Positions 38,704 through 38,833 of a DNA stretch of 64,000 nucleotides are shown here, in pieces. The stretch's first letter is position 1, and each line of letters opens with the position of its first letter. The position numbers were made by a program, and so were the translations under genes. The stretch lies in the NCBI RefSeq assembly GCF_000026545.1, contig NC_011601.1; one strand, given 5' to 3'. The stretch comes from Escherichia coli O127:H6 str. E2348/69. GTDB taxonomy: Bacteria; Pseudomonadota; Gammaproteobacteria; Enterobacterales; Enterobacteriaceae. Under the pieces are notes generated by a model, which worked only from the letters and a program-made list of their open reading frames with translations, was not told the DNA's origin and ran no database searches.

Positions 38704-38833
38704 CCACCACTCCAATCGTGGTTCGCAGTACTACACACACGATTACCGGGCTATACAGGAGCGGTTTGGTCTGAAAACATCCATGCCGCGTAAAGGTAAC
38801 CGTTACGACAACACCTCAATGAAAAACTTATAG
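38704..38833 (+). pseudogene. IS3-family transposase (OrfB) C-terminal remnant between selC and espF
   Basis: Translation QYYTHDYRAIQERFGLKTSMPRKGNRYDNTSMKNL resembles the conserved IS3-family OrfB C-terminal motif (SMSRRGNCWDNAPME-type); short fragment bounded by stops. Confidence 0.5.

Follow-up and report, generated by a model that had tools for sequence, protein, structure and literature searches.

A decaying IS600-like remnant in a patchwork of relics between selC and espF at the boundary of the LEE in Escherichia coli E2348/69

The window analyzed here is a stretch of 64,000 nucleotides that holds the yicI-yicJ-selC-LEE region of E2348/69, an enteropathogenic strain of Escherichia coli O127:H6; all coordinates without a locus label are positions within it. 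The chromosomal anchor of the island is the tRNA-Sec gene selC, at 38278-38372 on the plus strand (ARAGORN; Rfam RF01852, 83.8 bits; annotated as tRNA-Sec in E2348/69). The first intact LEE gene is espF (39271-39891, minus strand), with which LEE4 ends. It is a 206-aa open reading frame with three proline-rich repeats and is annotated as espF. The RefSeq/PGAP annotation of E2348/69 (L001 3908-4519) tags this gene as a pseudogene with a "missing C-terminus," and yet the 206-codon frame is open to its stop; the label is probably an annotation artefact of variation in repeat number. The selC-espF interval measures 898 bp and is 100% identical to NZ_CP059840.2. Island sequence follows directly after selC, as is characteristic of islands that have a P4-type integrase module and insert at the 3' end of a tRNA gene. 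What has classically been called the "selC-LEE junction" is, nevertheless, a patchwork of relics and not a clean att site. From selC to espF, these are an integrase-upstream region, an IS630 fragment, the 3' end of an IS600-like element, and fragments of EspK/GogB-like and NleG-like genes.

The IS600-like segment, at 38681-39039 on the plus strand, corresponds to the 3'-terminal 370 bp (29%) of an IS3-family element and comprises the C-terminal third of orfB plus the right inverted repeat, as defined by alignment to IS600 positions 895-1264. Compared with one copy of the 1264-bp IS600, it is 85% identical at the DNA level to positions 895-1262 (E 9e-104); in E. coli genomes totaling 28 Gb, annotated copies of IS600 match it by the thousand at ~85% (E ~1e-97). 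An earlier reading of this DNA from its letters (the sequence-only reading) had made its case depend on a significant match to a known IS, and the IS600 copies provide one at 85%. Over the alignment to 895-1264, 313 of 370 columns are identical, and the relic has deletions of 10 bp and 1 bp. The homology starts at IS600 position 895 and stops exactly at 39039, which is the IS terminus, with the ends of IS600 set by an E. coli B copy that is intact and carries its inverted repeats at L004 1104-1130 and 2341-2367. The right inverted repeat itself (27 bp, 39013-39039, plus strand) is identical to that of IS600 at 24 of 27 positions, with the terminal CA changed to GA. Among the E. coli genomes and the full set of PLSDB plasmids, no intact element comes closer than a plasmid variant at 87.5%. 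Because the closest intact elements are only 85-87.5% identical, the parent would have been an unsampled or extinct relative of IS600.

At the protein level, we searched profiles with a frame-repaired translation of the relic (frameshifts mended; 106-108 aa). It matches the NCBIfam model NF033516 "IS3 family transposase" with an E value of 1.9e-24 over profile positions 272-367 of 369. The score in this model (transpos_IS3) is 86.6 bits, below the full-length cut-off of 160, as expected because the relic is a fragment, and Pfam rve_2 and rve_3 are matched above their cut-offs. The relic thus has the transposase homology of an IS600-like member of the IS3 family, in the rve/DDE core of OrfB. 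Its amino acid identity to IS600 (IS3 family, IS3 group; Shigella/E. coli) is 76% over the C-terminal 108 residues of OrfB.

The sequence-only reading had singled out a frame of 35 codons at 38704-38833 as resembling a conserved C-terminal motif of IS3-family OrfB transposases. The frame is real: the peptide QYYTHDYRAIQERFGLKTSMPRKGNRYDNTSMKNL is encoded at 38726-38830 on the plus strand, and codon-level alignment with IS600 shows it to be homologous to QYCAYDYRVIQEQFGLKTSMSRKGNCYDNAPMESF of OrfB. The resemblance to IS3-family OrfB holds, but the label is too simple: QYYTHDYRAIQERFGLKTSMPRKGNRYDNTSMKNL follows immediately on the second Asp of the DDE triad in OrfB, and the Glu position falls within it. 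The relic is also about three times longer than had been noticed, extending over 38681-39039. It had further been called truncated and bounded by stops, which is correct on both counts: the frame that holds QYYTHDYRAIQERFGLKTSMPRKGNRYDNTSMKNL is open over 38669-38830, preceded by a TAA at 38666-38668 and followed by TAG-TAA at 38831-38836 (the listing of open reading frames gives a 51-aa frame at 38678-38833), and the element lacks its first 894 bp. In PGAP/RefSeq, 38681-38996 of this locus (316 bp) is an "IS3 family transposase" pseudogene that is frameshifted, has an internal stop, and is missing its N terminus.

The relic differs from IS600 most plainly in what it has lost. With the first 894 bp have gone the left inverted repeat, orfA, the frameshift site, and two-thirds of orfB, and the remainder is too divergent for a recent copy of IS600 proper. 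Of the inverted repeats that bound an intact element (5'-TG...CA-3'), the right end alone is kept, and the programmed -1 frameshift between orfA and orfB that yields OrfAB has no counterpart in a relic that retains only the last 108 orfB codons. The DDE triad is likewise destroyed. The region of the first Asp is deleted, the second catalytic Asp is replaced by Asn (HHSNRG; AAT at 38714-38716, GAT in IS600), and the catalytic Glu is replaced by Lys (SMKNL; AAA at 38822-38824, GAA in IS600). The reading frame is further broken by three in-frame stops and, at two places, by frameshifting deletions, of 10 bp after 38850 and of 1 bp near 38969. Compared with IS600 OrfB, 78 of 103 comparable codons specify the same residue, and the changed codons are 25 nonsynonymous versus 12 synonymous, which is the profile expected of neutral decay. 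In the interval, promoter-like and terminator-like sites are no more numerous than in shuffled sequence, and an Rfam search found no family apart from selC. We call the relic inert on these three grounds, namely its sequence decay, the lack of promoter or terminator enrichment, and the lack of an Rfam match. To judge by its sequence, it is a dead fossil with no function today, an ordinary evolutionary scar and not a working gene.

The relic starts 308 bp past selC, behind two other pieces. The sequence-only reading had placed it at the selC-LEE junction, which is right in that it lies within the selC-espF interval but wrong if taken to mean that it touches selC. The first 43 nt after selC (38373-38415, no strand assigned) are backbone or old att-side sequence common to many non-LEE E. 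coli; they match at 93% in many non-LEE genomes, and in strain NGF1, whose selC lacks a LEE, the counterpart of 38201-38415 is 98.6% identical. Overlapping them is a block at 38378-38610 on the plus strand that corresponds to the intergenic region between selC and a P4-type tyrosine integrase gene, with 81-85% identity in the non-LEE genomes listed (~84% in E. coli B). In E. coli B, in the O111:H11 strain 8D, and in strain M19, a tyrosine recombinase gene stands ~60 bp beyond the counterpart of this block. In E2348/69, the homology instead breaks ~60 bp short of the position of the integrase start codon and gives way to the IS630 fragment, and a tblastn search with the E. coli B integrase against 38300-39300 returned nothing. 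Thus, although the LEE of E2348/69 occupies the same tRNA site as selC islands with a P4-type integrase (E. coli B, the 933L prophage, SHI-2 type), and although the 233 bp after selC are ~84% like the selC-integrase intergenic region of those islands, the integrase gene that should stand beside the tRNA is absent, and the intergenic region upstream of it alone survives. That the selC-integrase intergenic relic leads into no integrase gene suggests an earlier state in which this LEE possessed a selC-proximal integrase of its own.

Between this block and the IS600-like relic lies an internal fragment of an IS630-family transposase gene (38614-38680, plus strand; 63-74 bp, depending on the alignment). 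Annotated IS630-family transposases match it at 85.7% identity along 63 bp (E 6e-10 in 28 Gb), and L009 2501-2574, which is within the CDS at 1940-2928 of that locus, matches it at 82.4% along 74 bp. The IS630 alignment reaches 38687, giving a 7-nt overlap with the IS600 alignment. The transposase homology is seen in the DNA; the peptide in the IS630 frame, which is too short, has no Pfam match. The fragment is internal to the gene, beginning near codon 188; both ends of the element are gone, and with them the terminal inverted repeats and the TA duplication of IS630 elements.

On the espF side, homology to an effector gene begins at 39040, the first base past the IS end. The 46 bp at 39040-39085 (minus strand) are a fragment, codons ~80-96, of an EspK/GogB-family LRR effector gene, with 85% identity to L012 3631-3676, which is inside an intact 454-aa EspK/GogB-family gene beside an O121-type LEE. 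The local alignment has a score of 32 versus a maximum of 21 among 200 shuffles, and at the protein level, LKSLFAIDCDNLKGSKL aligns with IKSLSVINCENLKVSEL. The next 50-bp fragment, at 39069-39118 (minus strand), is assigned to a DUF1076 (NleG-like) gene, with 78% identity to L012 4369-4419 and a score of 27, which is modestly above the controls (maximum 21 in 200 shuffles). In translation, FVKSAQSSKVCSL aligns with FVKNALHSKVCSL. This putative NleG-like fragment is short, and its assignment is the weakest in the interval. Last comes the post-espF region (39113-39270, minus strand), which has a long AT-rich hairpin (~39146-39237), matches sequence beside espF in O121-, O26/O103-, and O111-type loci, and is conserved at this place beside espF in every LEE type that we examined. 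The RNA fold of 39130-39275 on the minus strand has an energy of -41 kcal/mol (z = -4.9), and the hairpin probably marks the end of the LEE4 transcript. As a side observation on annotation, the IS630 fragment has no RefSeq annotation, and PGAP annotates neither the right inverted repeat nor the integrase-upstream relic nor the effector-gene fragments.

The arrangement of these pieces becomes intelligible by comparison with the O121-type LEE, whose flank reads espF, chaperone, DUF1076/NleG-like gene, EspK/GogB-family gene. Three matches to this flank are found in the E2348/69 spacer at 39040-39220: the two gene fragments and 39113-39220, which matches the O121-type region just downstream of espF. 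All three share the order and orientation of the O121-type flank. Relative to that flank, E2348/69 has lost ~2.1 kb in two steps, and its effector gene is cut by the IS. The three colinear matches argue that the spacer is a collapsed ~2.2-kb flank that held chaperone, NleG-like, and EspK/GogB-like genes and that the IS inserted within the effector gene. Because the right end of the relic abuts the effector gene fragment, the target of the IS lay inside the island. The O121-type flank shows this target in its empty state; of the two junctions at which a short (3-4 bp) direct duplication of the target would flank an intact element, the left one is gone.

Two further features of this side deserve mention. 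The intact O121-type counterparts of the fragments at 39040-39118 (minus strand) occupy L012 2552-4846, and the present arrangement of the effector fragments would be accounted for by a pair of deletions that share ~17 bp of overlap or microhomology at 39069-39085. Nearer to espF, 43 bp (39226-39268) are missing in O157:H7 and O145 and are flanked by ATTAGTTGG direct repeats in E2348/69 and O111; this loss beside the espF stop codon looks like a slipped-mispairing deletion.

The comparison can be widened to other LEE lineages. With presence of the LEE scored by an escG-escF-cesD2 probe, 696 of 5,426 complete E. coli genomes carry it. The whole selC-espF interval is found in 383 of these LEE-positive genomes, and the IS tail plus spacer in 456. 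The pseudogene itself is already known: an "IS3 family transposase" pseudogene is annotated in RefSeq beside espF in E2348/69, O157:H7, and O145 genomes, at the LEE/933L prophage boundary in the latter two, and is the same locus as the relic. In the O157:H7 and O145 contexts examined, a P4-like prophage of the 933L type, with its own integrase, separates selC from the relic, which is found at the right end of the prophage. At the O145 junction, an imperfect copy of the selC 3' end stands between the prophage and the patchwork and is followed by the post-selC sequence of E2348/69. These arrangements indicate that E2348/69 represents the pre-prophage state. O157:H7 (L002 9493-12000) additionally has an ISEc8 (IS66 family) between the 933L end and the relic block, at the equivalent of 38402-38408, with ~7 bp duplicated on both sides; O145 is without ISEc8.

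In the O111-type LEE, which has been reported at pheV (PMC2323221), the last 92 bp of the relic are kept, cut by an intact IS3. Yet the junction between IS end and target, ...CAGTAYACCTGA|GTTTAC..., is identical to that in E2348/69 (39039|39040). In the O111-type strain that we examined, the LEE does not adjoin selC; the side of the island examined ends at aphA-tyrB, with no tRNA there. The relic is absent from the O121-type and O26/O103-type LEE. An exact-pattern scan for the IS/target junction in one genome per species (GTDB) gave 0 matches, and hence none outside E. coli. Because the relic is shared by O157:H7, O145, and O55:H7 and its junction is kept in the O111-type LEE, the insertion appears to be old and to travel with the espF end of the LEE. 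A single old insertion at this end followed by lineage-specific erosion would explain the distribution of the relic. In O111, an IS3-family relic together with an IS630 pseudogene near nleE (L005 657-2055) was considered as a further instance of this arrangement and rejected, since its IS3-family part does not match; its IS630 part matches the E2348/69 IS630 fragment weakly (80.6% over 62 bp).

Taken together, these observations lead us to put the probability at roughly 90% that the relic is an inert, decaying remnant of an IS600-like element of the IS3 family, left at the LEE boundary by IS insertion and later deletions. Three alternatives may be weighed against this reading. First, the fragment could have been co-opted, either as a small protein translated from the 51-codon frame at 38678-38833 or, as DNA, as a regulatory RNA, promoter, or insulator acting on LEE4/espF or on selC. 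The relic is 99.2-99.4% identical between EPEC1 and O157:H7, O145, and O55:H7, whereas neighboring LEE genes are 98.3% identical, so that its conservation is equal or higher, and there is one promoter-like site at 38805-38834. High identity between these lineages is, however, expected from the recently shared ancestry of this LEE type, and the promoter-like and terminator-like counts do not rise above those of shuffled sequence, with selC as the sole Rfam family. Moreover, the catalytic residues are lost, the changes relative to IS600 are mostly nonsynonymous, and the O111-type LEE keeps just 92 bp of the relic, whereas the O121- and O26-type loci have none of it and yet a full LEE. Several LEE types that have lost the relic are fully functional. 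The known LEE small RNAs are also encoded elsewhere: these are Arl and sRNA350, the latter at the cesF 3' UTR (PMC5030294, PMC8565820). We considered sRNA350 as an occupant of the selC-espF interval and rejected it on account of that location. Co-option thus seems very unlikely.

Second, as the sequence-only reading had proposed, the element could have delivered the island and left the remnant as a scar. The LEE would then have come to selC either in a composite transposon of which this was one end or by IS-mediated cointegration. The relic is near the island boundary in E2348/69, and IS elements are frequent at the edges of pathogenicity islands in general (PMC7545054). But there is a single IS end, and what it faces is a piece of an effector gene within the island. 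The selC-integrase intergenic relic, with the IS630 fragment after it, sits between selC and the IS, and its survival points to site-specific, integrase-mediated insertion at the tRNA. Comparison of the LEE boundaries of other strains, the check that the delivery claim invited, also goes against it: a prophage separates the relic from selC in O157:H7 and O145, where the relic follows espF and not selC, and the same IS/target junction occurs in the O111-type LEE away from selC (reported at pheV; PMC2323221). Delivery is therefore largely refuted, and we consider it slightly less probable still than co-option. The weaker form of the same proposal, that the IS rearranged the boundary, is plausible, as the IS is cut at its 5' side and flanked by deletion junctions. 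Third, the likeness to a transposase could be a chance feature of a short open reading frame, given that QYYTHDYRAIQERFGLKTSMPRKGNRYDNTSMKNL alone (35 aa) has no Pfam match at E<=1, but 359 bp at 85% identity to IS600, terminal inverted repeat included, together with the NF033516 match, have already refuted this idea.

For the preferred reading, that of IS insertion followed by deletion and decay, the following history may be proposed. The ancestral LEE island would have borne, downstream of espF, the chaperone, NleG-like, and EspK/GogB-like LRR effector genes that are still present in the O121-type LEE. An IS600-like element would have transposed into the EspK/GogB-like gene. Later deletions and IS traffic would then have cost the IS its first 894 bp and the effector gene its remainder, and would have removed the selC-proximal integrase gene of the island. 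An IS630-family element may have taken part in these deletions, leaving ~65 bp of itself. The result would be the present ~900-bp patchwork, in which the remaining 359 bp of the relic have presumably drifted neutrally since. In the lineage of EHEC O157 and O145, a 933L-type P4-like prophage would later have entered selC and pushed the patchwork off the tRNA. The sequence relationships among these pieces are read directly from the alignments; the order and mechanism of the deletions we infer from their end states. Judged in the same way, from the end state, it is plausible that IS elements had a part in the loss by deletion of the integrase and of the flanking effector genes. Intermediates, for example an effector gene that holds an IS600-like element at full length or a LEE with both integrase and relic, were not found.

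If this history is correct, the interval is a readable stack of relics, and the 35.6-kb "minimal" LEE of E2348/69 derives by deletion from an island that was larger and bore an integrase and accessory effectors, a proposition to which we would give even odds. The relic and its neighbors would then record that IS insertion and deletion stripped the prototype EPEC LEE of the integrase it once possessed and of some effector genes at its flank, and such losses fit the known immobility of this LEE. The junction at 39039|39040, common to the alpha- and gamma-intimin LEE at selC and to the O111-type LEE, could in that case help to order LEE lineages, and such a conserved IS/target junction could serve as a shared-derived lineage marker when LEE variants are compared. 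The finding carries little functional weight, since the relic is dead DNA of the kind left by ordinary decay at an island boundary; what value it has is modest and historical. In 1998, the LEE sequence papers of Elliott and of Perna reportedly noted IS600-like sequence at this end of the LEE. Our literature search did not find the fine-scale mosaic reading, parts of which the classic LEE sequence papers may hold, and this finer mosaic may not have been spelled out before.

The O111-type LEE shows some further peculiarities at the espF end. The espG-rorf1 segment, which normally lies at the far end of the LEE, here adjoins the espF end across an IS3 copy (L005, L010, L011, L022; L024), and in one O111-type strain two inverted IS3 copies bracket the segment. 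This arrangement suggests an IS3-mediated rearrangement. The adjoining OI-122-like region ends at a truncated aphA beside tyrB. Finally, the O111-type LEE has a 125-bp insert in the loop of the post-espF hairpin (L005 ~6250-6370), which looks like an ERIC/IRU repeat.
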